NCBI GenBank assembly: GCA_031257995.1
Contig: JAIRNN010000028.1
Coordinates: forward strand, 1-32,910
Direction of reading: 5' to 3'
DNA: 32,910 nucleotides
Source of the DNA: Spirochaetaceae bacterium
GTDB taxonomy: Bacteria > Spirochaetota > Spirochaetia > Treponematales > Breznakiellaceae
Shown one piece after another: positions 108-32,910 of this stretch. Each line of letters begins with the position of its first letter. The stretch's first letter is position 1. The position numbers and the translations under genes are program-made. Under the pieces are notes generated by a model. It was not told the DNA's origin. It worked only from the letters and a program-made list of their open reading frames with translations, and did no database searches.

Positions 108-187
108 GGGGAAGCCTCCCCCTCGCTCCAGCCCTACGGGCTTACGCTACCCCCTCTGCGGGGCGCTGCCACCCCCGCAACGCCCCC
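108..187 (-). repeat. GC-rich composite hairpin element, family R, copy a (reverse orientation)
   Basis: Reverse complement reads GGGGGCGTTGCGGGGG...CTGGAGCGAGGGGGAGGCTTCCCC. The same 5' and 3' modules occur at 1973-2080, 21762-21889, 24973-25095 and 26124-26198. Confidence 0.8.
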
Positions 188-189
188 GG

Positions 190-1429: not shown

Positions 1430-1903
1430 ATGGGCAGAAAGAAAAAAACGATTAATCGGCCGATTGCGCCGGATCCCAAATACAACAGCGTGGTTGTGTC
1501 AAAGTTTGTCAACCGGATGATGTGGGAGGGTAAGCGTTCGGTGAGTATGGGTATCATCTACGAGGCTTTTGACGGTATTAAAAAGAAGGATGCCGAGAAG
1601 GAACCGCTTGAAGTGTTTTTGAAGGCGCTGGACAATGTGAAACCCGTGATCGAGGTTAAGTCCCGGCGTGTCGGCGGCGCGACTTATCAGGTGCCGATCG
1701 AGATTCGGGAGTCGCGGCGGGAGGCGCTTTCGATGCGCTGGCTTATCAACGCGGCGCGTTCCCGGTCGGGTAAGAGTATGGGCGAACGGCTCGCCTCGGA
1801 GTTGCTTGAAGCGTACAATAATACGGGCAGCGCTTACAAGAAGAAGGAAGATACCCACCGGATGGCGGAGGCGAACAAGGCGTTTGCCCATTACCGGTGG
1901 TAG
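1430..1903 (+). CDS. rpsG: 30S ribosomal protein S7
   Basis: MGRKKK...PDPKYNS...[20 protein letters not shown]...NKAFAHYRW. Confidence 0.97.
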
Positions 1904-1972
1904 GTTTCGGGCGGCCGCCTGACCTTGCGTTTGTGCGGGGCGCCGGCGGGATGTCCTTGACGCTTTCGAGGA

Positions 1973-2080
1973 GGGGGCGTTGCGGGGGTGTCCCCCGCTG
2001 AGAGCGCTGGAAGACGCGCTTGCAAAGCAAGCATAGGCTGGAGGCGGGGGTTCGGCAACGAAGCAGCCGCGGCTTCCCCC
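1973..2080 (+). repeat. Family R element, copy b, in the rpsG-tuf spacer
   Basis: GGGGGCGTTGCGGGGGTGTCCCCCGC...GCTTGCAAAGCAAGCAT...CTGGAGGCGGGGGTTCGGCAA...GGCTTCCCCC. Flanked by inverted AGGAGGGGG / CCCCCTCCT. Confidence 0.8.
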
Positions 2081-2110
2081 TCCTAAGGAAGCGCTGATTT
2101 ATTCAATGCG

Positions 2111-2256
2111 GTATTTGCGCGGTGAAACGAGCAAATACATAGGGCAGCGCGATTGCCAACGCAAGCTGACGTTAGCCAGCGGCTGATAGTAATCAGCTAG
2201 TGGCACGGTGTCAAGTTAATCAGCTGCCCTAAAGGGACGGCGAAAAAAAAACCGTG
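2111..2256 (+). other. Hairpin-rich non-coding segment between family R copy b and the tuf promoter
   Basis: GTATTTGC-N12-GCAAATAC (2111-2138). AGGGCAGC ... GCTGCCCT encloses GCTGAT-AGTA-ATCAGC. Ends CCGTGTTTT. Confidence 0.4.
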
Positions 2257-2270
2257 TTTTGAGCCCCTAC

Positions 2271-2299
2271 TTGGCAAAATTTGTGGAGTGTGCTATAAT
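2271..2299 (+). promoter_or_regulatory. Sigma70-like promoter for tuf and the S10 cluster
   Basis: TTGGCA 2271-2276, 17-nt spacer, TGcTATAAT with TATAAT at 2294-2299. Confidence 0.6.
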
Positions 2300-2340
2300 T
2301 AGCACTCCCTAAAAGGATATTGAAGGATAAGGAGAATTAT

Positions 2341-3531
2341 ATGGCAAAGGATAAGTTTAATCGGACCAAGACCCACATGAACGTTGGGACAATTGGTCAC
2401 GTTGACCACGGGAAGACGACGCTTTCTGCGGCCATCACTATGTACTGCGCGGCGAAGTTCGGCGACAAGGTGATGAAGTATGAGGATATTGATAACGCGC
2501 CGGAGGAAAAGGCTCGCGGTATCACGATCAATACCCGGCACCTCGAGTATCAGTCGGATAAGCGCCACTACGCGCATATCGACTGCCCGGGGCATGCGGA
2601 CTATATTAAGAATATGATCACCGGGGCGGCTCAGATGGACGGAGCGGTCCTTGTCGTGTCGGCGCCGGATTCCGTCATGCCTCAGACACGCGAGCATATC
2701 ATTCTCGCCCGGCAGGTCGGTGTTCCAAGCATGATTGTCTTCCTTAATAAGGTTGACCTTGTGGACGATCCTGAATTGCTTGAGATCGTTGAGGAAGAGG
2801 TGAAGGACGTGCTCACCGCCAACGGGTTCCCCGGCGATGAGATTCCGATCATCAAGGGTTCCGCTTTTGACGCGATGTCCGATCCGACCAATCCCGAGGC
2901 GACGGCTTGTGTCGAGGAGCTGTTGCAGGCGATGGACAGTTATTTCCCTGATCCTGTTCGCGATGACGACAAGCCTTTCTCCATGCCGATTGAGGATGTG
3001 TTTACGATTCCTGGGCGCGGCACCGTCGTTACCGGCAAGGTTGAGCGCGGCAAGCTCAAGCTCGGCGAGGAAATCGAGATCGTCGGTATTCGGCCGACGC
3101 AAAAGACGGTCGTTACCGGTATCGAAATGTTCAATAAACTGCTTGACGACGCGCAGGCCGGTGATAACATCGGGGCGTTGTTGCGCGGTATTGAGAAGAA
3201 GGGTGTCGAGCGCGGGCAGGTTCTTGCCAAGCCCGGTTCGATCAAGCCGCATACCAAGTTCAAGGGGCAGATTTACTGCCTTTCGAAGGAAGAGGGCGGA
3301 CGCCACAGTCCGTTCTTCGCGGGGTATCGTCCGCAGTTCTATTTCAGAACGACGGACATCACCGGAACGGTCAGTCTGCCCGAGGGCAGGGAAATGGTTA
3401 TGCCCGGCGATAACACCGAGATTTTGGGCGAGCTGATTCACCCGATCGCTATGGAGAAGGGTTTGCGTTTCGCTATCCGTGAGGGCGGCAGGACGGTCGC
3501 GTCTGGACAGGTGACGGAAATTATCGAATAG
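2341..3531 (+). CDS. tuf: Elongation factor Tu
   Basis: [28 protein letters not shown]...DCPGHADY...NKVDLV. AAGGAG precedes the ATG at 2341. Confidence 0.98.
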
Positions 3532-15458: not shown

Positions 15459-15638
15459 CCCCTTATGTGGGGTCTGGGGGACGAGTCCCCCAGCGGGGGG
15501 TCTATGACACCTTCGGGGGCAAGGCCCCGTAGAGGGGGTAGCATAAGACCCTAAGCCGTGCTTGCAGAGCAAGCATTTGCGGGCGGCGGTCTGGAGCGAG
15601 GGGTCGGCAAAATTTGCTGCGGCTTCCCCCCTTATGTG
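15459..15638 (+). repeat. Family R-related element, copy c, inserted between rpsM and rpsK, bounded by an 11-bp direct repeat
   Basis: Its 3' half, GCTTGCAGAGCAAGCAT...CTGGAGCGAGGGGTCGGCAA...GCGGCTTCCCCC, matches copy b. CCCCTTATGTG occurs at 15459-15469 and again at 15628-15638. Confidence 0.75.
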
Positions 15639-19120: not shown

Positions 19121-19237
19121 CACGGGAAACCTTGATCGCGAGGAACCGCAAACGGCGCCATAAAGGGTTGCGCGGATTTTTCAGTCCTTGTCTCTCTTAA
19201 TCCGTGCCGTCTGTGGTTTTGTGTTTCCGTCTGTCGG
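19121..19237. repeat. Family D motif cluster C
   Basis: CACGGGAAAC, CCGCAAACGG, CGCGGATTTT, then inverted TTAATCCGTG, CGTCTGTGG, CCGTCTGTCGG. Confidence 0.6.
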
Positions 19238-21761: not shown

Positions 21762-21889
21762 GGGGGAAGTCTCCCCCTCGCTCCAGACACGCACTCTGGC
21801 CGAAAGGCCTGAGCCTAAAGGCTCGTCCGCACCTTCCTCCGTTTGGCCTTCCGCTACCCCTCTGCGGGGGACACCCCCGCAACGCCCCC
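21762..21889 (-). repeat. Family R element, copy d (most complete, reverse orientation)
   Basis: Reverse complement: GGGGGCGTTGCGGGGGTGTCCCCCGCAGAGGGGTAGCGGAAGG...CTGGAGCGAGGGGGAGACTTCCCCC. Confidence 0.8.
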
Positions 21890-21951
21890 GATACAGTGTT
21901 TGCGCCGACTTCTATGTGTGGAGTTTTGCCAAAAAATTGTAAAAAAAATAC

Positions 21952-21980
21952 TTGACAAAGTCTGGTGTTTCCTGTACGGT
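21952..21980 (+). promoter_or_regulatory. Candidate promoter for the decayed lipoprotein gene
   Basis: TTGACA 21952-21957, 17-nt spacer, TACGGT 21975-21980. Confidence 0.35.
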
Positions 21981-22055
21981 GCAATTATGCGAAATTGAGT
22001 TTCAAATTTAATCATACCAGACCCATTATGAGGAAAGTTTTAGAAGGAGCATATT

Positions 22056-22902
22056 ATGAAAAAGAAAATGGGATTTGTTGTTTTGGGGGTGGCTTTATTA
22101 CTCGGCGCTTGTGCCTCAACCTCAGTATGGAGTGATGGCATGGATAATGGAGAAAAACCGGCGTTCATAGAAAAGCAACTGGTTTCGCTTGAGCAAATAG
22201 TCGAATTGCACAAAGAAATAAAGGACATTGACATATCACTGGAGAAATTACGTCCGGTAGCGTTGTTAAACAATGTTTTTTCATTTTTTGATCTGGCTCA
22301 ATCCGGTTAAAAGTATGAATTTAAGAAGGAATATCCTTCGGAAAGGGAAATTCCCGATGGTGTTCTCGCGTCCTATCCGTTGGAATTTTACGAAATGAAG
22401 GCGGCGGTGATAATTTCCGAAAGCGCATTTGAAACCGTTGAAGGACAGAGCGCCATATTCCACGAATTTGTCCATTGTTTTCAATGGGATGAGGGTGAAC
22501 GGGAACTTAAGCAAACATTGACTATAGCGCGGGAAGGCATGGGAGAAACGGGATTATATGTGGGGACTCAATCATCCTTTTCCCTATGGGAGTGATGTTT
22601 TCATAAAAAGAACAATGGAACTGGACAATGGTTATGATATAGGGGAATATCATAACGAGATTAAGTCTGAACTAAACGAAAAAGATTTTGAATATATGAT
22701 TTGGCAGGAATGGAAGGAAGGTTACGTTCGTTATATAGAAAATCTGGTCGGAGAAAGATTAGGAGCAAATAAAAACAGCAGTGTATTGACCACGCCTTTT
22801 GAAAGGCCCGTTTTTTATAGAATCGGCAACAGATATATAGAGACCTTGATAAGAGACGACCCTAAACTAAAAGGCGACATAGAGGCGCTGTTTCAAAAAT
22901 GA
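22056..22902 (+). pseudogene. Decayed lipoprotein gene with an HExxH (zinc-metallopeptidase-like) motif: one in-frame stop and one frameshift
   Basis: AGAAGGAG precedes ATG 22056. Lipobox LLLGAC. TAA at 22308-22310, but the same frame stays open 22311-22595 (KYEFKKEYPSEREIPDGV...FHEFVHCFQW). Reading continues in the +1 frame from about 22558 to 22902. Confidence 0.6.
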
Positions 22903-22958
22903 TAAATTGTGAGATATAAACATAATGGAATAAAACGAAGCGCGGGCAGACTTCGCGT

Positions 22959-23108
22959 CCACAGATTAACCACAGCACCGAATCACCTTTAACCGCAGAT
23001 GAACGCGGATGAACACAGAAGAAGAGGAGCCACGGATTTTCACGGATTAAGAGAGGCGCAGGGTGAAAAATCCGTGTACATCCGTGTCATCTGCGGTTTC
23101 CCGTGATG
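22959..23108. repeat. Family D motif cluster B (between convergent gene ends)
   Basis: CCACAGATTAA, CCGCAGATGAA, CGCGGATGAA, CACAGAAGAA, CCACGGATTTT, CACGGATTAA, then inverted AAATCCGTG, ACATCCGTG, TCATCTGCGG. CACGGATTTTCAC 23031-23043 pairs with GTGAAAAATCCGTG 23063-23076. Confidence 0.7.
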
Positions 23109-23115
23109 AAGCCCG

Positions 23116-23430
23116 TTAATCCATGTGGAACATCTCTACAAGGCCGTCGCTCACAGGCGATTCGTCCGGGTTGGTGTCCATCACGTCTTTCATCATGTGC
23201 CACCACTTCCGCACGATCTCTTTGCCGGGAAGCCCGCCGTCCGTGGCATCGTCCGCCCGGCGCTGAAACGCGAAAAGCGTGTTGGTCTTCCGGTCCAGAT
23301 AGATCGAATAGTCGGAAATCCCCGCCTTGCGGAGTTCCGCCTTGAGGTCTGGCCATATCTCGTCGTGGCGCTTCTTATACTCCGCTTCACAGCCGGCCTT
23401 GAGCCGCATCGCAAACGCATGTCTTGTCAT
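23116..23430 (-). CDS. rhaM: L-rhamnose mutarotase (104 aa)
   Basis: AAGGAG precedes the ATG at 23430. MTRHAFAMRLK...EYKKRHDEIWPDLKAELRKAGISDYSIYLD...LFA......WW..M.DVM..NPD.SPVS. Close to my recollection of E. coli RhaM in sequence and length. Confidence 0.88.
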   Translation of the reverse strand: MTRHAFAMRLKAGCEAEYKKRHDEIWPDLKAELRKAGISDYSIYLDRKTNTLFAFQRRADDATDGGLPGKEIVRKWWHMMKDVMDTNPDESPVSDGLVEMFHMD

Positions 23431-23473: not shown

Positions 23474-23733
23474 TCAGCATATCTTCCGGCATTCTATCCC
23501 CAGAAGCCGCGCCAGCTTTTCTATTTTTCCGGCGATATGTCCGGTGCCGATGGCGCAGTGATGGGCCGGCCCGGCTTTTGACCATTGGTTGACAAAATCG
23601 CGGGCGGGCAAGGCAAAACGATAACGGCTGTTCGTATTGCCGATTTTCAGAACCGGGCCGGGAACCGATTCGCCTTCGGCGCAGAGCAGGAACGTTGACC
23701 CGCCGGGCCCCCGCACGACCCACTTACCCTCAC
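23474..23733 (-). pseudogene. 3' remnant (~85 codons) of a sugar isomerase gene, L-fucose/L-arabinose-isomerase-like C-terminal domain
   Basis: ...STFLLCAEGESVPGPVLKIGNTNSRYRF..PARDFVNQWSKAGPAHHCAIGTGHIAGKIEKLARLLGIE resembles the C-terminal end of that family, from memory. The ORF's N-terminal 40 codons are just a translation of the H1 hairpin. Confidence 0.4.
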
Positions 23734-23734
23734 G

Positions 23735-23892
23735 ACCCGCGCAGCGATAACGTGTCTGGTAGTGTGTTCTTGGGGACGTGAAACACCCCCTGCGGGCGGC
23801 ATTGCGCCGCGTAGCAAGCACAGCCGCCCGCAGGGGGTGTTTCACGTCCCCCCGCGAGACGGCCTAACTAACTACCCAACACTTAATGAGCC
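23735..23892. repeat. H element copy 1: ~158-nt unit with a perfect 29-bp-stem hairpin, directly downstream of the binding-protein gene
   Basis: Arms 23772-23800 GGGGACGTGAAACACCCCCTGCGGGCGGC and 23823-23851 are exact reverse complements, with a 22-nt loop. Flanks CGACCCGCGCAGCGATAACGTGTCTG and CTTAATGAGCC are shared with copy 2. Confidence 0.85.
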
Positions 23893-24911
23893 TAATACAC
23901 GCTCTTCCACTCGTTAATGTTGGACGGTTCAAACTTGAAGGGCGGACCCAAGACGACCTCGGTGCCGCCGTCGGCTGCGTTGACAACGGTGTAGCTGCCG
24001 AGCTTGCCGCCGCCGAACTTGTCGCCGATTTTACCGGTGATCGCGCCGTCCGCGAGAGCCTTCGCCGCATAAGAGGCAAGGTAGCCCAGATCAATCGGGT
24101 TCCACAAGAACATATACGGACACGAACCGTTGGTGATGTAGTCCGCCATTTCCGAGGGAAGGCCGAGACCGGTGATTTTGACCTTGCCGATGAGCCCCCG
24201 GTCGGTTATGACTTTGGCCGCCGCCGCGATACCGACCGTAGTCGGCGCGACAATCACCTTGAGGTTCGGATAACTCGCGAGAAGCCCCTCGGTCTCCGAT
24301 ACGGACTTGTCGCGGAGATCGTCGCCGTAGGCAATCTTCACCAGTTTCAAATTGGCGTACTTCGCCTGCTTCAGAGTTTCCTCCATCACCGCAATCCAAG
24401 CGTTCTGGTTGGATGCCTGACTGGTCGCCGAAAGAATCGCGATCTCGCCGGAACCGCCCGCCTGATCAAAAGCCGCTTCCACCAGCGTTTCCCCAATCAG
24501 CTTGGTGTCCGCCTGATTGATATGCAGGGAACGGCTGGCCGCATTCACCGCCGAGTCGGCAGTAACGATGTTGATGCCCGCGTTCTTCGCCTTTGTGAGT
24601 ACCGGCTGAAGCGCGTCGAAATCGTTTGCCGAAATGGTGATTGAGGCGACCTTCTGCGCGATAAGCTGATCAATTATCTGGATCTGAGCTTCCGCAGTCG
24701 GAAGGTCGGGAGCCCGACGGATCACCGTTCCACCCTGCTCTTTGACACCGGTTTCAAAACCGTCCATCAGTTTTTCCCCAAAGGGATTCCCGGTGCTCTT
24801 GAATACAACAGCATGCACATTGCCCCCGCCCGCCTGCTGTCCGCCGCCCGCAAACAATGCCGCGCTCAAAGCGGCCGTCAGCGTCAACGCAATCACTAAA
24901 ACTCTTTTCAT
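23892..24911 (-). CDS. Sugar ABC transporter periplasmic substrate-binding protein (RbsB/RhaS-type fold), probably for rhamnose
   Basis: GGAGG precedes the ATG at 24911. Signal peptide MKRVLVIALTLTAALSAALFA. PBP type I features. Context: sugar ABC genes and rhaM. The ORF-track start at 25013 lies in repeat sequence. Confidence 0.85.
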   Translation of the reverse strand: MKRVLVIALTLTAALSAALFAGGGQQAGGGNVHAVVFKSTGNPFGEKLMDGFETGVKEQGGTVIRRAPDLPTAEAQIQIIDQLIAQKVASITISANDFDALQPVLTKAKNAGINIVTADSAVNAASRSLHINQADTKLIGETLVEAAFDQAGGSGEIAILSATSQASNQNAWIAVMEETLKQAKYANLKLVKIAYGDDLRDKSVSETEGLLASYPNLKVIVAPTTVGIAAAAKVITDRGLIGKVKITGLGLPSEMADYITNGSCPYMFLWNPIDLGYLASYAAKALADGAITGKIGDKFGGGKLGSYTVVNAADGGTEVVLGPPFKFEPSNINEWKSVY

Positions 24912-24972
24912 ACCAAAATCCTCCATAAAAATATATTTACCGCCCAATGCGGCATTTCTCCCCATCCCATGA

Positions 24973-25095
24973 GGGGGGAAGTCTCCCCCCTGCCTCCAGC
25001 CAGCGCAAACCATCGAAGGCTACGCCGGCGATAGTTTGCGCCGTCTTCCGGCACCCCCCTCTACGGGGCGCTGCCCCGTAACGCCCCGCCCCCGC
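24973..25095 (-). repeat. Family R element, copy e
   Basis: GGGGGGAAGTCTCCCCCC...CCCCGTAACGCCCCGCCCCC. Reverse complement gives GGGGCGTTACGGGGCAGCGCCCCGTAGAGGGGGG...CTGGAGGCAGGGGGGAGACTTCCCCCC. Confidence 0.75.
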
Positions 25096-25250
25096 GACCC
25101 GCCCAGCGATAACGTATCTGTATCCTTGGGGACGGGAATACACCCCCTTCGGGCGACATTGCGCCGCAAAGCAAGCACCAGCCGCCCGAAGGGGGTGTAT
25201 TCCCGTCCCTCCGCACTAATCCCTCTTACTGACTGACCCTTAATGAGCCC
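25093..25250. repeat. H element copy 2, same orientation as copy 1
   Basis: Arms 25128-25157 and 25181-25209 (GGGGACGGGAATACACCCCCTTCGGGCGAC / GCCGCCCGAAGGGGGTGTATTCCCGTCCC), with one mismatch. Flanks CGACCCGCCCAGCGATAACGTATCTG and CTTAATGAGCC. Confidence 0.85.
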
Positions 25251-25671
25251 CGCGCACTAAGCGGAGTGTGTCCGCACACTTAGCAGAGTGTGCCCGCGCA
25301 CTTAGCAGAGTGTGTCCGCGCACTTAGCAGAGTGTGTCCGCACACTTAGCAGAGTGTGCCCGTGCACTTAGCAGAGTGTGCCCGCGCACTAAGCGGAGTG
25401 TGCCCGCGCACTAAGCGGAGTGTGCCCGCACACTTAGCAGAGTGTGTCCGCGCACTAAGCGGAGTGTGCCTGCGCACTTAGCAGAGTGTGTCCGCACACT
25501 TAGCAGAGTGTGTCCGCGCACTTAGCAGAGTGTGTCCGCGCACTTAGCAGAGTGTGCCCGCGCACTTAGCAGAGTGTGCCCGCGCACTTAGCAGAGTGTG
25601 CCCGCGCACTCGGCAGAGTGTGCCGGCGCACTTAGCAGAGTGTGTCCGCACACTCGGCAGAGTGTGCCCGC
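25250..25671. repeat. Tandem array: 19 head-to-tail copies of a 22-bp unit, consensus CCGCGCACTTAGCAGAGTGTGY, plus a partial CCGC
   Basis: Counted unit by unit: unit 1 at 25250-25271, unit 19 at 25646-25667. Each unit holds the inverted repeat GCRCACT-N6-AGTGTGC. There are no spacers. Confidence 0.95.
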
Positions 25672-25762
25672 TGAAACTGCTTCCGCGAATGTTTCCTTCG
25701 CAAGCGCAACCATCTCCCATTATCCATTTTCCATTTTCAATTCGCGTAGTGTGGCTGTCCCT

Positions 25763-26119
25763 CCCCCGTAGGGGGAGCCGCCGCTCTTTCCCATCACGCC
25801 GCCCCCAAGGAAGGCCCCTGTGGGGCGCCCCGCGAGTGGGGGTTGGCTCTCCCCAGAATGGGGGGCCGCCGCTCTTTCCCTTCAAACCGCGCCCAAGGGA
25901 AGCCCCTGCGGGGCCTCTCGCACCGGACGGTGCAGACCTCCTGCGCCGGACGGTGCGAACCTCTTGCGCCGGGCGGTGCAGACCCCCTGCACCGGGCGAT
26001 CCGAACCTTTCGCACCGGGCGATCCTTCCCCCGTAGGGGGAACCGCCGCTATCTCCCCTCACGCCGCCCCCAAGGGAAGCCCCTGTGGGGCCCGCCTCCA
26101 AGGAAAGCCCCTTCGGGGC
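25763..26119. repeat. Repeat mosaic: three ~64-nt modules (25763-25826, 25851-25914, 26028-26091), a 23-bp tandem x4.6 (25920-26025), and a partial module (26097-26119)
   Basis: Module: CCCCC-GTA-GGGGG + RRCCGCCGCTMTYTCCC.TCA..CCGC.CCCAAGGRAAG + GCCCC-TGY-GGGGC. 23-mer units: GCACCGGACGGTGCAGACCTCCT / GCGCCGGACGGTGCGAACCTCTT / GCGCCGGGCGGTGCAGACCCCCT / GCACCGGGCGATCCGAACCTTTC. Confidence 0.85.
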
Positions 26120-26123
26120 GGGC

Positions 26124-26198
26124 GGGGGCGTTGCGGGGGTGTCCCCCGCAGAGGGGGTAGGACGCAACGAAGTGCGGCCGGAGGGGGAGGCTTCCCCC
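26124..26198 (+). repeat. Family R element, copy f (short form)
   Basis: GGGGGCGTTGCGGGGGTGTCCCCCGCAGAGGGGGTAGGACGCAACGAAGTGCGGCCGGAGGGGGAGGCTTCCCCC. Confidence 0.8.
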
Positions 26199-26269
26199 TT
26201 TTTGCTTGCTACCCGCATTTTTCCTTCCTTGACGCGCTCTCCCGTAAGGGGGCGCCGCCCGTTGCCCCA

Positions 26270-27271
26270 TTATCCATGCCTCCTCAAGGGTCTGCGGGGC
26301 AGGTTCATTATCAGTACGGACAAGACCAGCAGCAACCCCAGGATGATGAGTATGAGCTGGGCGGACACGTTGATGAGGCCGAGGCCGTAGTTGAGGAAGC
26401 CGATGATGAAGATGGCGAGGAGGGGGCCGGCGATTCTGCCTGTGCCGCCTGAGGTGCTGACCCCGCCGAGGACGACCATCGCGATAACATCGAGTTCGTA
26501 GTTCATCGCGACGTTGGGGCGCGTGCTGCCCATGCGCGAGGTGAGGAAGATCGAGCAGACCGCCGACATGAAGCCGACCAAAAGGCCCACGATGAGGAGG
26601 ACGCGGTCGGTACGGATGCCGGAATAGCGGCAGGCGAGCAGGTTGCTGCCCATGCCGTAGACGGCGCGGCCAAACGAGGTGCGGTGCAAGAGGAGGCCGA
26701 AGATGATGGCGGCGGCGGCGAATACGATGAATATGAACGGTACCGGGCCGACATAGCCCCACGCGAGGAACGAAAACCATGCGGGAAAGCCGCCTGACGC
26801 GCGGTTTTCGAGGATGACGTAGGCCGCGCCGCGATAGATGGTCATCGTCGAGAGCGTAACGATCATCGCGGGGAGTTCGCGGAACTTGATGAGGAGGAGG
26901 CTGTTCACGCCGCCCAGAGCCGTGCCAATGACGAGGGCGAAGACGAGCGCCGCCTGCATCGGGATGCCCGCGTTGTAGATGACGGCCATGAGTACCGAGG
27001 TGAGCGCGACGATGGAGCCGACGGAGATGTCGATGTTGCCCAGAATGATGACGAGCATCATCGGGAGGACGATGAAGGCTTTGTCAAGGAAGTTCATCGG
27101 CGCGGAAAGAAAGGTGTTGGCCGAGAGATACCACGGGGAGAGGAGCGAGTTCATCACGTTGACGAGCAGGAATATGATGACGAGAAGCCACTCCCACTGG
27201 AAGAAGAAGCGTTTCCAGCTCCACGGTTTTTCGAGGGTGAGGATTCTTTTTGACAAAGCGCTTTCGCTCAT
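26270..27271 (-). CDS. Sugar ABC transporter permease (RbsC/RhaQ-like)
   Basis: 333 aa, about 9-10 hydrophobic segments, typical BPD_transp_2 pattern ...GNIDISVGS...GG.S..GG.G. ATGA overlap with the upstream permease stop. Confidence 0.9.
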   Translation of the reverse strand: MSESALSKRILTLEKPWSWKRFFFQWEWLLVIIFLLVNVMNSLLSPWYLSANTFLSAPMNFLDKAFIVLPMMLVIILGNIDISVGSIVALTSVLMAVIYNAGIPMQAALVFALVIGTALGGVNSLLLIKFRELPAMIVTLSTMTIYRGAAYVILENRASGGFPAWFSFLAWGYVGPVPFIFIVFAAAAIIFGLLLHRTSFGRAVYGMGSNLLACRYSGIRTDRVLLIVGLLVGFMSAVCSIFLTSRMGSTRPNVAMNYELDVIAMVVLGGVSTSGGTGRIAGPLLAIFIIGFLNYGLGLINVSAQLILIILGLLLVLSVLIMNLPRRPLRRHG

Positions 27272-28359
27272 GACGCGCCTCCTGTTTTGCTTGTTTTACC
27301 CGCTATCGCGGCGGCCCGCGCGCGGAGCACCGCCTTGTCGTTGTTCCGTTTGATGAGTACGTTGGTGATGATGGCGGCGAGGATGACCACGCCCTGTATC
27401 GCCTGCTGCCAAAACGGGGACACGTTGATGAGGGGGAGGGCGTTGGCGAGTATCCCAAAGAGGATCACGCCGAGGATAAGGCCGGAGACCTTGCCCCGCC
27501 CGCCCGACACGCTCACGCCGCCGAGAACGCAGGAGGCGATGACGTTCATCTCGTAGCCGGCCGCGGTGTCTCCCTGGGCCGAGGCGAACTTCGCCACCCA
27601 CAAAACGCCGGCGAGCCCGGAGAGCGCGCCCATGAGGAGGTAGACCAGCGTAACGATGCGCCGCCGGGGGAGGCCGATGATTCCGGCGGCTTCGGCGTTT
27701 GAGCCGACCGCGTAGATCCGCCTGCCCGTCCGCGTGTAGGTGATAAAATAGAAGAAAACAATGTAGAGCGCTACGGCGATCACGATGAGGTTGTTCACGC
27801 CGAGGAAGCGGCCCGTTGCCATGCCCTTGAAAGCGTCGCTCATCTGGTAGGCGCTCACCCACGAGCCTTTGCTCACCACATAGGTGAGGCCCCGGATCAC
27901 GTTCATGAGTCCGAGGCTGGCGATGATGGGGAGTATCGAGAACCGCGCGACAAGGAGGCCGATGAGGAGGCCGAAACCCGCCCCGATGAGGGCGCCTTCC
28001 AGCACGAGAACCACGGGCGGGATGGAAGGACGGGCGAAACAGGTCAACGCCGTTACCATGCCGGAGAAGGCCATCGTCGCGCCGATGGAGAGGTCGATGC
28101 CGCCTGTGAGCAGCACCATCATCATGCCGATGGCGAGGATGCCGAGGATGGCCGTGTTGACGAGCAACTGGTTGATGTTGATCGCGGTCAAAAACTCTTT
28201 GTTCCGCGCCTGAACGACGGCGCTCACCACGACAATAAAAATGACGAGGCCCGCTTCCCGAAAGCGTTCCGCGCCGCGGGCCTTCCTGCCGTCCTTTTTG
28301 AAAAATCCGCCCGCCAGCCCGCCTTGAAAAAGCGCCTTACCGGTCAGTCCCATAGCCAT
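27268..28359 (-). CDS. Sugar ABC transporter permease (RbsC/RhaP-like)
   Basis: 363 aa, polytopic. ...TGGIDLSIGA...GGVS.SGG.G. Start overlaps the ATPase 3' end. Confidence 0.9.
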   Translation of the reverse strand: MAMGLTGKALFQGGLAGGFFKKDGRKARGAERFREAGLVIFIVVVSAVVQARNKEFLTAININQLLVNTAILGILAIGMMMVLLTGGIDLSIGATMAFSGMVTALTCFARPSIPPVVLVLEGALIGAGFGLLIGLLVARFSILPIIASLGLMNVIRGLTYVVSKGSWVSAYQMSDAFKGMATGRFLGVNNLIVIAVALYIVFFYFITYTRTGRRIYAVGSNAEAAGIIGLPRRRIVTLVYLLMGALSGLAGVLWVAKFASAQGDTAAGYEMNVIASCVLGGVSVSGGRGKVSGLILGVILFGILANALPLINVSPFWQQAIQGVVILAAIITNVLIKRNNDKAVLRARAAAIAGKTSKTGGAS

Positions 28360-29858
28360 TCCTCCATTGCCGCCTTGAGAATGTCTTCGGAGGTGGCGTT
28401 TCTGGTGTCCATTGTCGCGGTAACGGTTCCTTCCCGCATCACGACGATACGGTCGCTCATGCCCAGCACTTCGGGCATCTCGGACGAGATCATAATCACG
28501 CCGTATCCCTCCGCCGCGAGGTCGTTCATAATCGCGTAGATCGCCGTCTTCGCGCCGACATCGACGCCTTTGGTCGGTTCGTCAAGGATAATCACCTTCA
28601 TATCGGAGGTGAGGAGTTTTCCCACGATGACCTTCTGCTGGTTGCCGCCTGAGAGAGTCGAAACGAGGTCGTGTACGCTCACCGCCTTCACGCTGAGTTT
28701 CTCGGAGAGTTCTTTTGCCATCCCGTTCTCTTTTCGCGTGTCAAGCCAGCCGAAGCGGGAACAGTCCTCCAGCACGGGGAGGCTGATGTTCTTGGCGATT
28801 TCCCAGCGGAGGACGAGCCCCTGTTTCAGGCGGTCTTCGGGCAGATAGCCGATTCCCGCCTCAATCGCCTGGTCCGGTGTCGGGTGGTCAAGCGGCTTTC
28901 CGTTCAGCGTAATCGTGCCCGAATCGTAGCCGGTGATGCCGTAGACCGCCTCGCAGACCTCGGTGCGCCGCGCCCCGACAAGTCCGGTAAGCGCGAGCAC
29001 TTCCCCTTTGCGGACGGCGAAACTCACGTCGGCAAAGAAGCCTAAGCGGGTAAGGCCCTCCACGCGCAAGACCTCCTCGCCGATCCGCGCCTCGCGTTTG
29101 GGGAAGAACTGGACGATCTCGCGCCCCACCATCGCGGTAACGAGGTTCTTGTTGTCAACATCGGCGATGTCCCACGTGTTGATATACTTTCCGTCACGGA
29201 GGACGGTTACGCGGTCGGCGAGCCGGTATATATCCTCGAAACGGTGCGATATGAAGATGATCGACACGCCCTCTTCCCGCAGTTTTCCCGTGATCTTGTA
29301 GAGGTCTTCGCTCTCGCGGTTCGAGAGCGGGGCGGTCGGTTCGTCCATGATGATGATGCGGGCGTTCGTGGACAGCGCCTTCGCGATCTCGACAATCTGC
29401 TGCTGGGCAACGGAGAGCGCCCCCATCGTGGCCCGCGCGTCAAAGTTCGCCCCCAGCCGCGAAAGCAACTCGTCCGCTTCCCGGTTCATCGTCTTCCAGT
29501 CGATACGGTGAAACGGCGCGGCGGTCTTTTCGTGGCCCATGAAGATGTTTTCCATCACGCTGATGTCGGGGAAACAGGTAACGTGCTGGTAGATGGCCGC
29601 GATCCCCAGCGCCTGCGCGTCCAGCGGACCCCGGATATGCGCGTCCTTCCCGTCCACGAGAAATTCCCCGCCGTCCGGCTGGTGCACCCCCGTGATGATC
29701 TTAATAAACGTCGATTTCCCCGCCCCGTTCTCGCCCATCAGCGCGTGAATCTCCCCCTTTCGGAGCGAGAAATGCACGTCATCAAGCGCCTTCACGCCCG
29801 GAAACGTCTTTGAGATATGGCGCAGGTCAAGAATACACTCACCGTTTGACATAATCAT
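28344..29858 (-). CDS. Sugar ABC transporter ATP-binding protein, duplicated ABC domains (RbsA/RhaT-like)
   Basis: Walker A GENGAGKST, signature LSVAQQQ, Walker B IIIMDEPT. Second domain LSGGNQQK, VIILDEPT. GGGGTGA precedes the ATG. Start is at 29858 or 29852. Confidence 0.93.
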   Translation of the reverse strand: MIMSNGECILDLRHISKTFPGVKALDDVHFSLRKGEIHALMGENGAGKSTFIKIITGVHQPDGGEFLVDGKDAHIRGPLDAQALGIAAIYQHVTCFPDISVMENIFMGHEKTAAPFHRIDWKTMNREADELLSRLGANFDARATMGALSVAQQQIVEIAKALSTNARIIIMDEPTAPLSNRESEDLYKITGKLREEGVSIIFISHRFEDIYRLADRVTVLRDGKYINTWDIADVDNKNLVTAMVGREIVQFFPKREARIGEEVLRVEGLTRLGFFADVSFAVRKGEVLALTGLVGARRTEVCEAVYGITGYDSGTITLNGKPLDHPTPDQAIEAGIGYLPEDRLKQGLVLRWEIAKNISLPVLEDCSRFGWLDTRKENGMAKELSEKLSVKAVSVHDLVSTLSGGNQQKVIVGKLLTSDMKVIILDEPTKGVDVGAKTAIYAIMNDLAAEGYGVIMISSEMPEVLGMSDRIVVMREGTVTATMDTRNATSEDILKAAMEEWLWD

Positions 29859-29994: not shown

Positions 29995-30345
29995 AGGCAC
30001 CGATTTTCATCACAGGGAATCGCAGGTGAGCACAGATTAAAATCAGCGTAATCTGTGAACAATGAAGCCCTTTCGCATTTTCCGTGATAAAAGAATAAAA
30101 CCACAGAAGGCGCGGATTAACGTGGAATAGGGCCTACAGATTCGAATAAAAGTCCGCAGATTAACGCGGATTGTCACGGATTAAAAGGAGCCAGGTATGA
30201 AAATCCGCATTGCCATATATTCGTCTCATCCGTGTCCGGGGTTATACGAAAAAAAAACGGCATTGCCGAAAGCCAAAGCGCCGCGATAGAAGTCCCGCGA
30301 GACCGGATTTGTGTCCGGCCTCTGTAACGTGTCCGGATTTTGGAA
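29995..30345. repeat. Family D motif cluster D (largest)
   Basis: CACCGATTTT, TCACAGGGAAT, CACAGATTAA, TAATCTGTGA, TTTTCCGTGAT, CCACAGAAGG, CGCGGATTAA, CTACAGATTC, CCGCAGATTAA, CGCGGATTG, TCACGGATTAA, AAATCCGCAT, TCATCCGTGT, and further CCGGATTT copies to about 30345. Confidence 0.7.
30249..30268 (-). terminator. Weak candidate intrinsic terminator downstream of the large ORF
   Basis: The minus strand reads CGGCAATGCCG followed by T9 (A-run 30249-30257 on +). The stem is only 4-5 bp. Confidence 0.3.
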
Positions 30346-30375: not shown

Positions 30376-32910
30376 TCACTCAATCCAAACCGCTATCCAT
30401 TTACCGGCAAGATCCTCTTTCACCGTTACCCTAATCGTATCCGATTCCCGCAAGACCTGAACGGGCAGATCCGGGGTGTAGAAGTCCACCGAACACGCGC
30501 CGGAACGGACCGCGCCGGTTCCGAGGCAATCCGGCAGGGTAAGTTCGCAAGGCGCATCGGCTTTCACGATCATAAGCCCGTGGATCAGGGGATTCCTCAG
30601 AGGCTCCTCTACCAGGGTCCAGGTCAGGGTAACGGGCTTATCCGCAAAGGTATATTCCTTGCCGTCAATGGCGAGACCCCGGCAGCCTGAGCCGCTGAAA
30701 CCTGCCAGGTTCCCGTCTTTGCCGAGCCGGTAGCTCAGGGTGTCCGTTCCCCGGTAGCTTATGCGGCGCCCCCGGATTTCTTCTCCCGAAAGGAGGATAT
30801 CGATCGGAGGCAGGGTACGGCCTGCCAGGAGCGCGCGGTCTTTTTCCTCATCCCGAAAAAAGGTACCGTACCAGTCCTCGGTGAACCGGCGGTAGTGGTT
30901 GGTGAGCGATACCGCTCCGTTAGGGAAAACATTCATAACATACCGCGCGTCTTTCGGCCTGGATCGGGCTTCAAGGCTGCCGGGGCCGTAAGCGCCCAGA
31001 GTATGCAGCACATCGAAAAGGGCGGATACATCATCGCCTGTGGAACCGGACTGATCGTCCCGGAGACGGAATCCAAAATAAGCCGCCACGCCTCCTTCTC
31101 CCGGTCCGGGGTACTTTTTAAGGACCCCGACCGTTAACCCCTCCGCCGCAGCCACCGGTTCCGCGTCCCCGGGGGTGGGGGCATACACATAGTCGGGCAG
31201 CAGGTCCGTAAGGATCCGCATGGGCGGGATTGCCGCCAAGGGGCCGGAAAAAACAACATCCTTACCGGCCATCAATCCCGGCCGGCTCATGGGCTCTACC
31301 GCCTTTAGGCCGAAAAGATCCAGGAAGGTCCGGTGAACATCCGTATTCGCCGTTTCTTCGTTCATAACCCCCGGGGCCGCCATCCATACCAGTTTACCGC
31401 CTCCGCGGACAAAACGGGCCAGCAGATCCAGGGTTTGTTTTTTGACAAAGGGTTCAAAGAGCGCCACGATTCCCCGATACTTCCTCCCCAAGATTTCAAG
31501 CCGGTTGTCTTCCGTCAAACGCCCGTACTGGAGCAGTTTTTCTGCGGTAATATAATTTCCATAACCGTACTGTACCATCCAGGAACCAAAACGCTCCTCC
31601 ACATAGTTGAGCTCCAGGGGGTAAAGAAGGAGTACATCGGTATCCCGGTGCTCCATGCCCTGTACCAGCGCGTGGGACAGAGGCGCGCCGTGGGCCGCCA
31701 CGCCGTAGGCTTCTCCCACATTCCGGAGCCGCCTGAGGACTTCATTCGGGCTGCCCCAGCTTGCGCAATAGGCATAGGGAAAGCGGTTAAGAACACCGAA
31801 GGAACAGGCCAGGGCTTCGGCATAGTAATCCCGGTCGGTATTTCCGCCTTCAGGATGATCGTTTCCGGAACCGGTAAGGAATTCGTTCCACCGGAAATAG
31901 TCGTAACAGGCGGCGGTATTCTCCCGGATGGAGCTGGACCAGACATAGGCCGGTGTATAATCATACACCTTCCCCCGCGCCGCCGAACCGGGAGCCATGG
32001 CGGAAAACACATCCCCTTCAAAGTAACGATCGCAGGTCGGGGATTCCTGCCATGTCGCGTGAGCCCGGGTCATGATCGGAGCGCCGAAGAGTTTTTCCGA
32101 ATACTCAAGGGCATCCACGCTGAGATCCACCACCCGGCGGGAAAGCAGCTCGAAATAGCGCTTGCGGAAAAGCCAGGTCTCGTAGACAGCCCGAGGGTCT
32201 TTTCCGAAGACATGCTGGGAAGCCTCGTCCCCTCCGTGCTGGTGATAGGGAAAATACACCATATACTTGAGGAAATTCCGGTACTTATCCCCGTAGCGCC
32301 GGGCAAACTCGTTGATAAGCGCCGGGGTAACATACCGGGTCGTGATTTCCGTCAGGCCGAAATGATTGATCAGGTCCCAGTCGAACTGGATGTGCATCTC
32401 GTCGGAATAATACCCCTGGTAACGGACCCCCGCGTCTTTATGAGCGCGGATAACTCCGTGCATATAATCCGCGGCGGAAGCGTCAAAATAATCCAGCTCC
32501 GGCGTCCGGTACACCGCCACGATCAGGGCCCGCTGCTTCCCGCTTGCCGCGCGGCCGCTGACCCGCATCTTCCCGTAGCCCCAGCCGGAGCCGGTAACGG
32601 TAAAGGAGCTTTCGTCAATTTCAACCTTAACGCTTTCCGAAATATCGTCGATGGCGTTTTCATCTACATAGTAGTACGGCGAATTACCGATCCGCTCTTC
32701 GTCAAAAGCCAGCGCATGGACCCGTTCCAGTTTGAGCTTGACAGGACCCTTGTTGTTGTACCATTGCCGCTGGAGCGTCATGGCTGCATCAAAGGCGCCG
32801 CCCTCCAGGGCACATTCCTGAAACTGCCAGGAAAACCCGGTGTTGTCATGCCTTTGGGCAAAACCGCCGCCTATATCAAGGGGCGAAATCAGGGAGGCCC
32901 CGAAGGTCAT
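30376..32910 (-). CDS. Large uncharacterised protein (at least 844 aa, no signal peptide). May continue beyond the window edge.
   Basis: Uninterrupted 2.5-kb ORF with codon usage like its neighbours. The ATG sits exactly at the window end, so the true start is unknown. I recognise no catalytic motif. A central VALFEPF...GGGKLVWMAAPGV segment resembles flavodoxin-like/GATase-like modules found in some glycosidases (weak). Confidence 0.8.
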   Translation of the reverse strand: MTFGASLISPLDIGGGFAQRHDNTGFSWQFQECALEGGAFDAAMTLQRQWYNNKGPVKLKLERVHALAFDEERIGNSPYYYVDENAIDDISESVKVEIDESSFTVTGSGWGYGKMRVSGRAASGKQRALIVAVYRTPELDYFDASAADYMHGVIRAHKDAGVRYQGYYSDEMHIQFDWDLINHFGLTEITTRYVTPALINEFARRYGDKYRNFLKYMVYFPYHQHGGDEASQHVFGKDPRAVYETWLFRKRYFELLSRRVVDLSVDALEYSEKLFGAPIMTRAHATWQESPTCDRYFEGDVFSAMAPGSAARGKVYDYTPAYVWSSSIRENTAACYDYFRWNEFLTGSGNDHPEGGNTDRDYYAEALACSFGVLNRFPYAYCASWGSPNEVLRRLRNVGEAYGVAAHGAPLSHALVQGMEHRDTDVLLLYPLELNYVEERFGSWMVQYGYGNYITAEKLLQYGRLTEDNRLEILGRKYRGIVALFEPFVKKQTLDLLARFVRGGGKLVWMAAPGVMNEETANTDVHRTFLDLFGLKAVEPMSRPGLMAGKDVVFSGPLAAIPPMRILTDLLPDYVYAPTPGDAEPVAAAEGLTVGVLKKYPGPGEGGVAAYFGFRLRDDQSGSTGDDVSALFDVLHTLGAYGPGSLEARSRPKDARYVMNVFPNGAVSLTNHYRRFTEDWYGTFFRDEEKDRALLAGRTLPPIDILLSGEEIRGRRISYRGTDTLSYRLGKDGNLAGFSGSGCRGLAIDGKEYTFADKPVTLTWTLVEEPLRNPLIHGLMIVKADAPCELTLPDCLGTGAVRSGACSVDFYTPDLPVQVLRESDTIRVTVKEDLAGKWIAVWIE

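Follow-up and report, generated by a model that had tools for sequence, protein, structure and literature searches.

A probable lineage-private minisatellite of REP-like hairpins in the repeat-filled rhaQ–rhaS spacer of an uncultured spirochaete

The DNA considered here, a single stretch of 32,910 nucleotides (the window), belongs to an uncultured Treponema-like spirochaete and is chromosomal, with ribosomal-protein operons, SecY and RpoA filling 1–18 kb. Some 7 kb from this cluster lies an array of 22-bp repeats, set within a rhamnose ABC-transporter operon that is read from the minus strand. Upstream in the sense direction is the last permease gene of the operon, a rhaQ-like permease (26270–27271, minus strand), and downstream is rhaS, which encodes the substrate-binding protein (23892–24911, minus strand; TIGR02637, 362 bits against a cut-off of 342) and has its true start at 24911. 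The intercistronic gap between the two genes (24912–26269, minus strand) measures 1358 bp and is a mosaic of repeats; GC content over 25001–27000 is 64%.

The array itself is delimited by Tandem Repeats Finder (TRF) at 25249–25671 (period 22, 19.2 copies, 89% matches, 0 indels, score 650), and consists of 19 full head-to-tail units followed by a partial CCCGC. The unit can be written YCC-GCRCACT-(TAGCAG/AAGCGG/CGGCAG)-AGTGTG. All 19 units fit GCRCACTNRGCRGAGTGTGY with at most one mismatch (0 expected from shuffles), and the dyad GCRCACT-N6-AGTGTGY is present in every one of them, giving a 22-bp hairpin with a stem of 7–8 bp and a loop of 4–6 nt. The loop is TAGCAG in 13 units, AAGCGG in units 1, 7, 8 and 10, and CGGCAG in units 17 and 19, and the polymorphic columns of the unit are 1 (C in 11, T in 8), 3, 5, 6 (G in 14, A in 5), 11, 12 and 15. 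These differences make up a patterned set of 11 unit variants. Since neighbouring units are identical at 7–8, 13–14 and 15–16, and linked double substitutions are common to subsets of units, the variants point towards descent by duplication. No higher-order periodicity is evident within the array, and the divergence between units, at ~11%, means that it is not brand new, yet persists. Stops occur about every 22 codons in each of the six frames, and the array is not spanned by any open reading frame of 80 amino acids or longer. With a period of 22 and neither indels nor spacers, its units adjoin one another directly, unlike those of a CRISPR array. The array has the form of a minisatellite, with a unit in the 10–100 bp range repeated head to tail at a single locus and variants consistent with duplication, while the unit has that of a REP/BIME palindrome, being short (20–40 bp), G+C-rich, imperfectly palindromic, able to form a stem-loop and extragenic. 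An earlier sequence-only reading had described 19 uninterrupted units between the last permease gene and the binding-protein gene of a sugar operon, each with an inverted repeat, in three loop versions assigned unit by unit, and had called the array non-coding and not a CRISPR; all of this holds, the loop assignments exactly.

That reading passed over the surroundings of the array, which is one module among the palindromic repeats, some dispersed and some tandem, that make up a 1.36-kb mosaic. Adjoining the array is element X (25089–25249, minus strand; ~161 bp, or about 165), which holds a perfect hairpin with 27-bp arms (25129–25209) and ends in CTTAATGAGCC. A second copy, X' (23727–23890, minus strand), follows directly after the rhaS stop codon, has the same CTTAATGAGCC end and is 83% identical to X over 132 aligned nt (blastn). 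Its other end lies at most ~7 bp from the point at which an isomerase gene is truncated, leaving a remnant of 80 amino acids, and the rhaS–rhaM gap is ~459 bp as against 65–105 bp in relatives. Because X' adjoins this remnant and the rhaS–rhaM gap is enlarged, the region is one that is rearranging. A derivation of the array unit from the end of X was considered and dropped, as AACACTTAATGAG (X') and ACACTTAGCAGAG (unit) agree at 12 of 19 positions with one gap, which is too weak.

Two inverted copies of a further element, E, also lie in the gap: E_A (24967–25090), canonical on the minus (sense) strand and 55 nt upstream of the rhaS start, and E_B (26123–26197), canonical on the plus strand. 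E folds as three hairpins with compensatory changes and is a dispersed element, with six copies in the 33 kb, some of them within ribosomal-protein operon spacers, and occurrences in at least 120 metagenome stretches from many samples; E_B and the copy at 21854–21890 are 97% identical over 38 nt, 34 nt of them exact. It is absent from Rfam 15. Between the array and E_B are a GC-rich element of ~79 nt with two hairpins, present three times (25753–25831, 25841–25919 and 26018–26096; 78–86% identical) and a second tandem hairpin array of ~4 x 23 bp (25914–26021; unit CCTCYYGCRCCGGRCGGTGCRRA), which sits between copies 2 and 3 of the 79-nt element and overlaps their ends by a few bases. The outer stem of the 23-bp unit, GCRC...GTGC, and its R polymorphism are those of the 22-bp unit. 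The only A+T-rich stretch of the gap is a microsatellite, CCATTTT x 3.7 (25717–25742). Near rhaS, a small hairpin (24938–24954, minus strand) is followed by a T-rich run and a GGAGGA ribosome-binding site. Two other accounts of these repeats were rejected. A decayed gene in the gap was dropped, since tblastn with all ORFs of three relatives gave no remnant there, and so was the idea that tandem hairpin arrays are a general companion of E, as TRF found no comparable array in 778 kb of related and E-bearing loci (E-bearing nearly throughout).

For comparison, seven related loci were used whose rhaS is 79–91% identical to that of the window. All seven keep the order ATPase–permease–permease–rhaS, and their rhaQ–rhaS gaps are 36–111 bp long with one small hairpin; neither the 22-bp unit nor element E occurs in any of them. 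As the counterpart of this single intercistronic hairpin, the region of 24938–24954 is probably the ancestral spacer. Given the short gap of the relatives and the hairpin kept in the window, ~1.3 kb has been added in the window, and the addition is made of repeats throughout: the two inverted E copies, X, the three 79-nt elements, the 4 x 23-bp array, the 7-bp microsatellite and the 22-bp array.

The sequence-only reading had proposed a search for the 22-mer beyond the locus, and no further array was found in the window, genomes, related loci, metagenomes, plasmids or phages. A degenerate 19-mer run against 185,579 species genomes (one per species) gave only 48 single hits, where by our own estimate ~140 would be expected by chance. 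A tandem-junction pattern had 0 matches in JGI metagenomes and IMG/VR viral contigs, and the translation of the array, compared with 5.8 billion protein clusters (which would catch arrays miscalled as genes), recovered the window's own ORF alone; translations of X and X' found nothing among the protein clusters. The centre of the gap had no blastn match in 72,556 plasmids (PLSDB) and 50,697 phages. Outside the array there are no copies of the unit in the 33-kb window or the other loci fetched.

With modest confidence, we therefore read the array as a minisatellite private to this lineage, built from a REP-like hairpin, enlarged by slippage and passive in the operon transcript, because it is part of a 1.3-kb pile-up of selfish-looking repeats that is missing in close relatives. 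A BIME/NIME-like mosaic of extragenic palindromic repeats would have colonised the rhaQ–rhaS spacer of this uncultured Treponema, enlarging it to 1358 bp from an original length of a few tens of bp (~110 at most), and a 22-bp REP-like module within it would then have been amplified head to tail, presumably by slipped-strand mispairing or unequal recombination. The array would be carried along in a putative rhaTPQ-rhaS-rhaM transcript, probably with no specific function and no dedicated protein partner. At most, the array and the rest of the structured spacer may act generically, as a barrier or a region of processing by which the upstream cistrons and the downstream ones are uncoupled in stability.

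A stronger version of that last point is possible, though on the unlikely side: the array and X could be a selected cis-acting RNA, a processing or stabilisation module setting the rhaS:rhaTPQ ratio, much as REP/BIME elements work in the operons malEFG and hisJQMP, or stem-loops in operons under selective RNA processing and stabilisation (SRPS). The site is intercistronic and beside the gene for the binding protein, and the relatives too carry a hairpin there. At -0.53 kcal/mol per nt the whole gap is much more structured than the flanking genes (-0.35 to -0.40), and read-through is plausible because a search of the gap for sigma-70-like promoters was negative on both strands. A mechanism is on offer in the literature on REP/BIME and mRNA stability (PMC3184786) and on SRPS operons (PMC10311766, PMC8219983). 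However, the hairpins of the array are weak on the sense strand. The unit stems are fully paired only on the plus strand, that is, antisense to the operon, with a mean hairpin energy of -10.3 kcal/mol as against -6.3 on the minus strand; in sense RNA, 14 of the 19 stems contain an A.C mismatch, and the z-score of the folded array is only -3.0, compared with -14.5 for the antisense strand. The earlier claim that the G variant of the stem would still pair as G:U in RNA is accordingly right for plus-strand RNA and wrong for sense RNA. Moreover, one hairpin suffices in the relatives, all seven of which do without the array, and 19 copies go far beyond what a barrier requires.

It is unlikely that the array is an artefact of assembly, and we regard as improbable both forms that this could take, a wrong copy number or a gap interior mis-joined through the repeated E. 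What prompts the suspicion is that the gap interior is flanked by inverted E copies with 31-mers common to other loci, and that the k=31 Logan contigs break within both. Exact-protein look-ups with rhaQ, rhaS, the ATPase and L17 recovered only short contigs of this kind from one sample (SRR14710907; the same strain, with contigs independent of the window's assembly), so that the lineage is sampled by two assemblies, that of the window and that of Logan; the Logan contigs stop short of the array, at ~24998 in one E copy and ~26153 in the other. These breaks are accounted for by the E elements rather than by the array. Within the array exact repeats reach at most 53 nt and all 55-mers are unique, so that ordinary short reads and standard assemblers could resolve its copy number, while a false expansion would yield identical units and not 11 patterned variants. 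Both unique flanks, furthermore, run into the 3' module of an E copy, and at least two inverted E copies are therefore truly in the gap.

The sequence-only reading likened the array to plasmid iterons, parC-type centromeres or a multimerised operator. We find it decidedly improbable that the array serves, in any of these ways, as a set of protein-binding sites in DNA: as iterons belonging to an integrated replicon, as a centromere for partition, or as an operator, multimerised or titrating, of a dimeric regulator recognising AGTGTG-N4-CRCACT or GCRCACT-N6-AGTGYGC. In favour are a period of 22 bp, close to two turns of the helix, and the dyad symmetry of every unit; iterons of 22 bp occur in R6K and pPS10. 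The A+T-rich 7-mer repeat lies 45 bp from the array, together with a single DnaA-box-like TTATCCAT (7/9 match; 25705–25745), and a histidine kinase and an AraC-type response regulator are encoded 3.5 kb away. Nevertheless, the context is core chromosome; no rep, par, parA/parM, centromere-binding-protein or integrase gene is found among the window's proteins, much as the earlier reading had noted for rep and par; plasmids and phages gave no match; and no solitary dyad stands at the promoter region of the operon, at any other promoter region or anywhere else in the window. The array is also embedded in other non-coding repeats that are plainly not operators. Comparison among close relatives had been put forward earlier as a check on such a role, and the absence of the array from all seven related operons counts against a conserved protein-binding role.

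The strand on which the hairpins are complete raises a further question, namely whether the plus strand is under selection. Folded as plus-strand RNA, the array reaches -260 kcal/mol (the z of -14.5 given above), and all 19 hairpins form. The three variable stem positions show transitions only, giving G.T or G.U pairs on that strand, and loop and junction positions are freer; by a hand estimate, a stem-preserving pattern of this kind would arise by chance under neutrality in ~4–8% of cases. This hints weakly at constraint, or at an amplification bias driven by the hairpins themselves. That the array is a multi-hairpin element selected on the plus strand, as an antisense or independent RNA that either sequesters an RNA-binding protein or is cut into single units of 22 nt, or as a single-stranded DNA or cruciform sink for supercoils or gyrase, is in our judgement very improbable; if true, spirochaetes would have a spacer-less hairpin array of a new class.

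Least credible is the narrower proposal of an independent plus-strand non-coding RNA, acting as a protein sponge (CsrB-like) or cut into unit RNAs (ToxI-like), to which the chances we allow are very slim. The complete folding of that strand would suit it, and functional spacer-less tandem RNA arrays do exist, ToxI being an example (a ToxIN reference is given in PMC8040213). Against it, there is no promoter-like site on either strand, the loops of the array lack a GGA-type motif, Rfam yields no match at gathering thresholds (in E-value mode the only hits were miRNA-like noise, on the long hairpins of X), and the array is a singleton across the databases searched. Nor is there a partner: no toxN/abiQ-like gene or other candidate adjoins the array, whose sense downstream neighbour is rhaS and whose other strand runs into rhaQ in antisense. 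A type III antitoxin is rejected outright, as no toxN/abiQ-family gene lies directly downstream.

Read as a lineage-private minisatellite, the array matters little for mechanism as it stands. It does, however, illustrate cleanly how an intercistronic spacer can be colonised by palindromic repeat modules that go on to multiply inside it: in this uncultured Treponema the spacer has grown more than ten-fold within an operon that looks functional. The array would be a candidate marker for strain typing, and it also points to a genome lineage in which small repeats are unusually active. Element E, a by-product of the analysis of the array, is the more general lead. Should the conservation of the plus-strand hairpins prove to be selected, the array would lend itself to study as a model of a new kind of structured element, in RNA or DNA.

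Several known systems resemble the locus in part. Plasmid iterons (R6K gamma, pPS10) share its 22-bp, head-to-tail, helix-phased units, but iterons and parC centromeres have 3–10 copies that are usually non-palindromic, as against 19 palindromic units, and stand on a replicon beside a rep or par gene with an A+T-rich unwinding element and DnaA boxes, an ensemble that was not found at the array. ToxI (5.5 x 36 nt) is likewise a spacer-less tandem of short direct repeats and is functional as RNA, but its 2–6 pseudoknot units lie directly upstream of a toxN-family endoribonuclease gene, with a promoter and a terminator, and the array has no such gene. Supply et al. in 1997 (cited in PMC3184786) are said to have described MIRU-VNTR tandem repeats in the intercistronic spacers of operons, with copy numbers varying between strains. 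They share this kind of location with the array, but MIRU units are 46–101 bp long, non-palindromic and spread over ~40 loci, and often carry small ORFs that couple the translation of flanking genes. The NIMEs (Neisserial intergenic mosaic elements), made of dRS3 repeats and RS elements, are like the gap as a whole in being long, lineage-specific and rearrangement-linked intergenic mosaics of several short inverted-repeat families; in NIMEs, however, the dRS3 units are split by RS segments of 50–150 bp, which gives a CRISPR-like look, whereas the units of the array are contiguous.

There is also a likeness to tandem REP clusters. In REPs a GTAG or CGTC tag is conserved at one end of the palindrome (PMC3733652), and reading the unit CCGCGCACTTAGCAGAGTGTGY and its reverse complement directly reveals no GTAG/CTAC or CGTC/GACG. 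The array further differs in having no detectable dispersed copies and no RAYT (IS200/IS605-like Y1 transposase) gene in view among the window proteins scanned; because the unit lacks both the tag and dispersed copies in the available DNA, its status as a REP is only putative. Its units have a single orientation and a 2-nt linker, whereas in BIME-2 the Y and Z2 units alternate with longer linkers. Small REP hairpins are nonetheless known to be reiterated in tandem, including in arrays that flank Thauera gene clusters (PMC3733652). With the tandem clusters of E. coli BIME-2, Thauera sp. MZ1T GTAG-1 and Pseudomonas (PMC3733652, PMC3184786) the array shares a small (20–40 bp), G+C-rich, palindromic unit, an extragenic position that is often intercistronic in ABC-transporter operons, head-to-tail reiteration, mosaics with other motifs, and variation between lineages.

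The 22-bp array (25249–25671) lies between rhaQ, a permease gene, and rhaS, the gene for the substrate-binding protein. Tandem Repeats Finder returns it as one strong array (period 22, 19.2 copies, 89% matches, 0 indels, score 650). A degenerate pattern for the unit picks out the 19 units, each in exact 22-bp register, with no other match in the 32.9-kb window and none in shuffled sequence. Listed unit by unit, the array bears out what an earlier sequence-only reading had described, namely the dyad GCRCACT-N6-AGTGTG(Y), three loop versions (TAGCAG in 13 units, AAGCGG in units 1, 7, 8 and 10, CGGCAG in units 17 and 19) and a partial unit after unit 19, which we read as CCCGC. The array was also rightly taken to be non-coding, because stops recur about every 22 codons in every frame of both strands. 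On balance, it is probably a private REP-like minisatellite that the operon transcript carries along and whose structural effect, if any, would be generic.

The gap between rhaQ and rhaS (24912–26269, 1358 bp) is a repeat mosaic of which the array is one module, and no coding remnant was detectable in it. From the rhaQ side, in operon-sense order, come an inverted copy of the dispersed repeat E (26123–26197, canonical on the plus strand), a 28-bp duplication, a 79-nt two-hairpin element (26018–26096), a tandem array of four 23-bp hairpin units (25914–26021, unit GCRCCGG-RC-GGTGC), two further 79-nt elements (25841–25919 and 25753–25831), a CCATTTT microsatellite, the 22-bp array, the 161-bp element X (25089–25249, with a perfect hairpin of 27-bp arms at 25129–25209), a second E copy in opposite orientation (24967–25090) and a small hairpin, T-rich run and ribosome-binding site (24938–24911). 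The 23-bp and 22-bp units have the outer stem GCRC...GTGC and the G/A (R) polymorphism in common, and the 23-bp array may be a sister amplification.

Seven related loci, with rhaS 79–91% identical to that of the window, all keep the gene order ATPase-permease-permease-rhaS, but their permease-rhaS spacers measure 77, 111, 44, 62, 36, 39 and 39 bp against 1358 bp here. Each of these spacers contains a single small hairpin together with a T-rich run and a ribosome-binding site, and the window retains the counterpart of that hairpin beside its own ribosome-binding site; E, the 22-bp unit and any comparable tandem array were found in none of the seven. The rhaS-rhaM spacer is likewise 65–105 bp in five of the seven loci and about 459 bp in the window. 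Here X' (23727–23890), the other of the two copies of the ~165-bp element X in the window (hairpin arms 27–34 bp), directly follows the rhaS stop codon; both copies end in CTTAATGAGCC, and it is this end that adjoins the stop codon in X' and the 22-bp array in X. No copy of X was found elsewhere, and its translation matched nothing among 5.8 billion protein clusters. Within ~7 bp of X' lies what is left of an L-arabinose/fucose-isomerase-like gene (23480–23720, minus strand), its C-terminal 80 residues, which are 85% identical to residues 402–481 of the intact 482-aa protein in one relative (L051). As the remnant ends so close to the X' boundary, the gene was destroyed beside the repeat element. 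Judging from these sequence comparisons, the extra DNA is thus made up of repeats that have accumulated specifically in this lineage, at a place where rearrangement is also under way.

Wherever it was searched for, the unit proved to be a singleton. In one genome per species (185,579 species), the degenerate unit gave 48 isolated single matches, with ~140 expected by chance on our own estimate, and 0 arrays. The tandem-junction pattern had no match in JGI metagenomes or IMG/VR, and the translated array (one frame per strand, the remaining frames giving the same peptide) matched only the window's own spurious ORF among 5.8 billion protein clusters. The gap centre had no match in plasmids or phages, or in 778 kb of related and E-bearing contigs, of which nearly all bear E.

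Element E is a more general lead than the array. It is a dispersed, G+C-rich repeat of ~80–130 nt with the consensus CGGGGGCGTTGCGGGGGTGTCCCCCGC-AGAGGGGGTAGCG-[variable hairpin]-GCGAGGGGGAGACTTCCCCCTCC, present in six copies in the window (108–188, 1973–2090, 15516–15635, 21762–21890, 24967–25090 and 26123–26197), some of them inside ribosomal-protein operon spacers, and outside it in loci L054–L173. Its 19-mer core is present in many different metagenome samples, in a total of at least 120 stretches. E folds into three hairpins, of which the second and third show compensatory changes and the first tolerates insertions in its loop; it has no match in Rfam 15, is missing from the nearest rhaS relatives, and on sequence resembles a REP/MITE-like element or structured-RNA family not yet described. 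In metagenome loci, runs of GGGGACC/GGGGATC heptamers lie directly upstream of E copies (L150, L167, L168, L128) and other modular hairpins flank it (L070, L079, L154, L163), so in other organisms, too, E commonly belongs to a mosaic. Another repeat family, richer in A+T, consists of ATCYGYG heptamers (e.g. CACGGATTAA, CGCAGATTAA), often 10 bp apart. The window has 42 copies (~22 in total expected by chance), 23 of them in four short intergenic regions, with clusters at 220–350, 19171–19206, 22960–23095 and 30031–30234. One of these clusters is found upstream of the ATPase gene of the rhamnose transporter and another upstream of the histidine kinase gene, so the heptamers may be regulator binding sites.

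Each unit of the 22-bp array forms a 7–8 bp hairpin, and the whole array is self-complementary because the arms alternate. Folded as RNA, the plus strand (antisense to the operon) reaches -260 kcal/mol (z = -14.5) and the minus, operon-sense strand -205 kcal/mol (z = -3.0), with mean energies per unit of -10.3 versus -6.3 kcal/mol. Stems are fully paired in 19/19 units on the plus strand but in 5/19 on the minus, where the other 14 have an A.C mismatch; the G:U pairing earlier proposed for the R variant thus holds on the antisense strand and fails in the sense RNA. The three variable stem positions show transitions only, all leaving G.U/G.T on the plus strand, and the loop and the junctions are less restricted in their variation; by a hand estimate the stem pattern would arise ~4–8% of the time by chance under neutrality, which is a hint and not evidence. 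The asymmetry could reflect selection on plus-strand RNA or single-stranded DNA, and could equally reflect amplification bias, with good hairpins slipping more readily. From GC skew and general knowledge, the plus strand is presumably the lagging-strand template, if replication is co-directional with the ribosomal-protein operons. The gap as a whole folds at -0.53 kcal/mol per nt on either strand, against -0.35 to -0.40 for neighbouring genes, and no Rfam family matches. An element under selection for RNA stability or processing would agree with the array's position and with the literature, but its poor sense-strand hairpins and its absence from relatives make this unlikely.

That the array is a product of misassembly is a good deal less probable, as its k-mer structure gives no sign of such a problem: all 55-mers are unique, exact internal repeats reach 53 nt at most, and a normal short-read assembler could resolve the array. 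Its 11 different unit sequences are patterned, which is unlike a collapsed or expanded artefact. Exact-protein look-ups found the lineage in one other assembly only (Logan SRR14710907), whose k=31 contigs break inside E copies.

The sequence-only reading had likened the array to iterons, parC centromeres or a multimerised operator. Such a protein-binding array has only the 22-bp period, the dyad and the nearby A+T-rich 7-mer repeat in its favour, and its setting argues otherwise. Flanking the array, all on the minus strand, are genes for an ABC ATPase (28344–29858), two BPD_transp_2 permeases (27268–28359 and rhaQ, 26270–27271), rhaS (real start ATG at 24911, with a GGAGGA ribosome-binding site ahead) and rhaM (23119–23430). 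The binding protein passes the TIGR02637 (RhaS equivalog) cut-off, and its best homologues are all annotated rhamnose ABC binding proteins from Treponema or Spirochaetaceae, including T. primitia. Genes for S12, S7, EF-Tu, the S10/spc/alpha ribosomal proteins, SecY and RpoA occupy 1–18 kb; the window is core spirochaete chromosome, neither plasmid nor phage, which by itself takes away the surroundings in which iterons or a parC centromere would naturally occur. There are no partner genes and no solitary sites in the window, and the relatives do without the array, so protein binding is very doubtful. Least credible is a plus-strand hairpin RNA, the sole reading to use the strand asymmetry, but one for which the gap showed no sigma-70-like promoter and no partner is seen.

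Other features of the window deserve mention. In the str operon (1430–3531), S7 and EF-Tu are separated only by a 416-bp spacer that carries an E copy, and there is no fusA between rpsG and tuf. Between a response-regulator gene and rhaM, a low-GC island (~21900–22950; 40% versus 55% for the window), possibly acquired DNA, encodes an 84-aa lipoprotein-like ORF (MKKKMGFVVLGVALLLGAC...) and a 114-aa ORF, neither with a Pfam or NCBIfam match. An 844-aa ORF (30376–32910, minus strand) runs to the window edge and has no Pfam or NCBIfam match at E <= 0.01.

For the favoured REP-like minisatellite, the palindromic modules E, X and the 79-nt element would have colonised the rhaQ-rhaS spacer, after which slipped-strand mispairing or unequal exchange would have multiplied two small hairpin modules locally, giving the 23-bp and 22-bp arrays. 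Unit variants copied along in the process would explain the identical neighbours (units 7–8, 13–14, 15–16) and the linked double substitutions. Local amplification of small hairpin modules has been described for REP families, and in Thauera gene clusters are flanked by arrays of 5-bp-stem REPs (PMC3733652). The classical location of REP clusters (BIMEs) is inside ABC-transporter operons, where they can influence how stable the mRNA is and can serve as binding sites for IHF, gyrase and Pol I (PMC3184786). We do not file the array as a REP, because no dispersed copies of its unit were found in the window or the related and E-bearing loci, the unit lacks the GTAG/CGTC tag of that family and no RAYT gene is in view in the window; by analogy only, it would work like a REP cluster. 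Tandem arrays of small extragenic palindromes are already known, and this one is a new, private member whose regularity is pleasing to the specialist rather than surprising.
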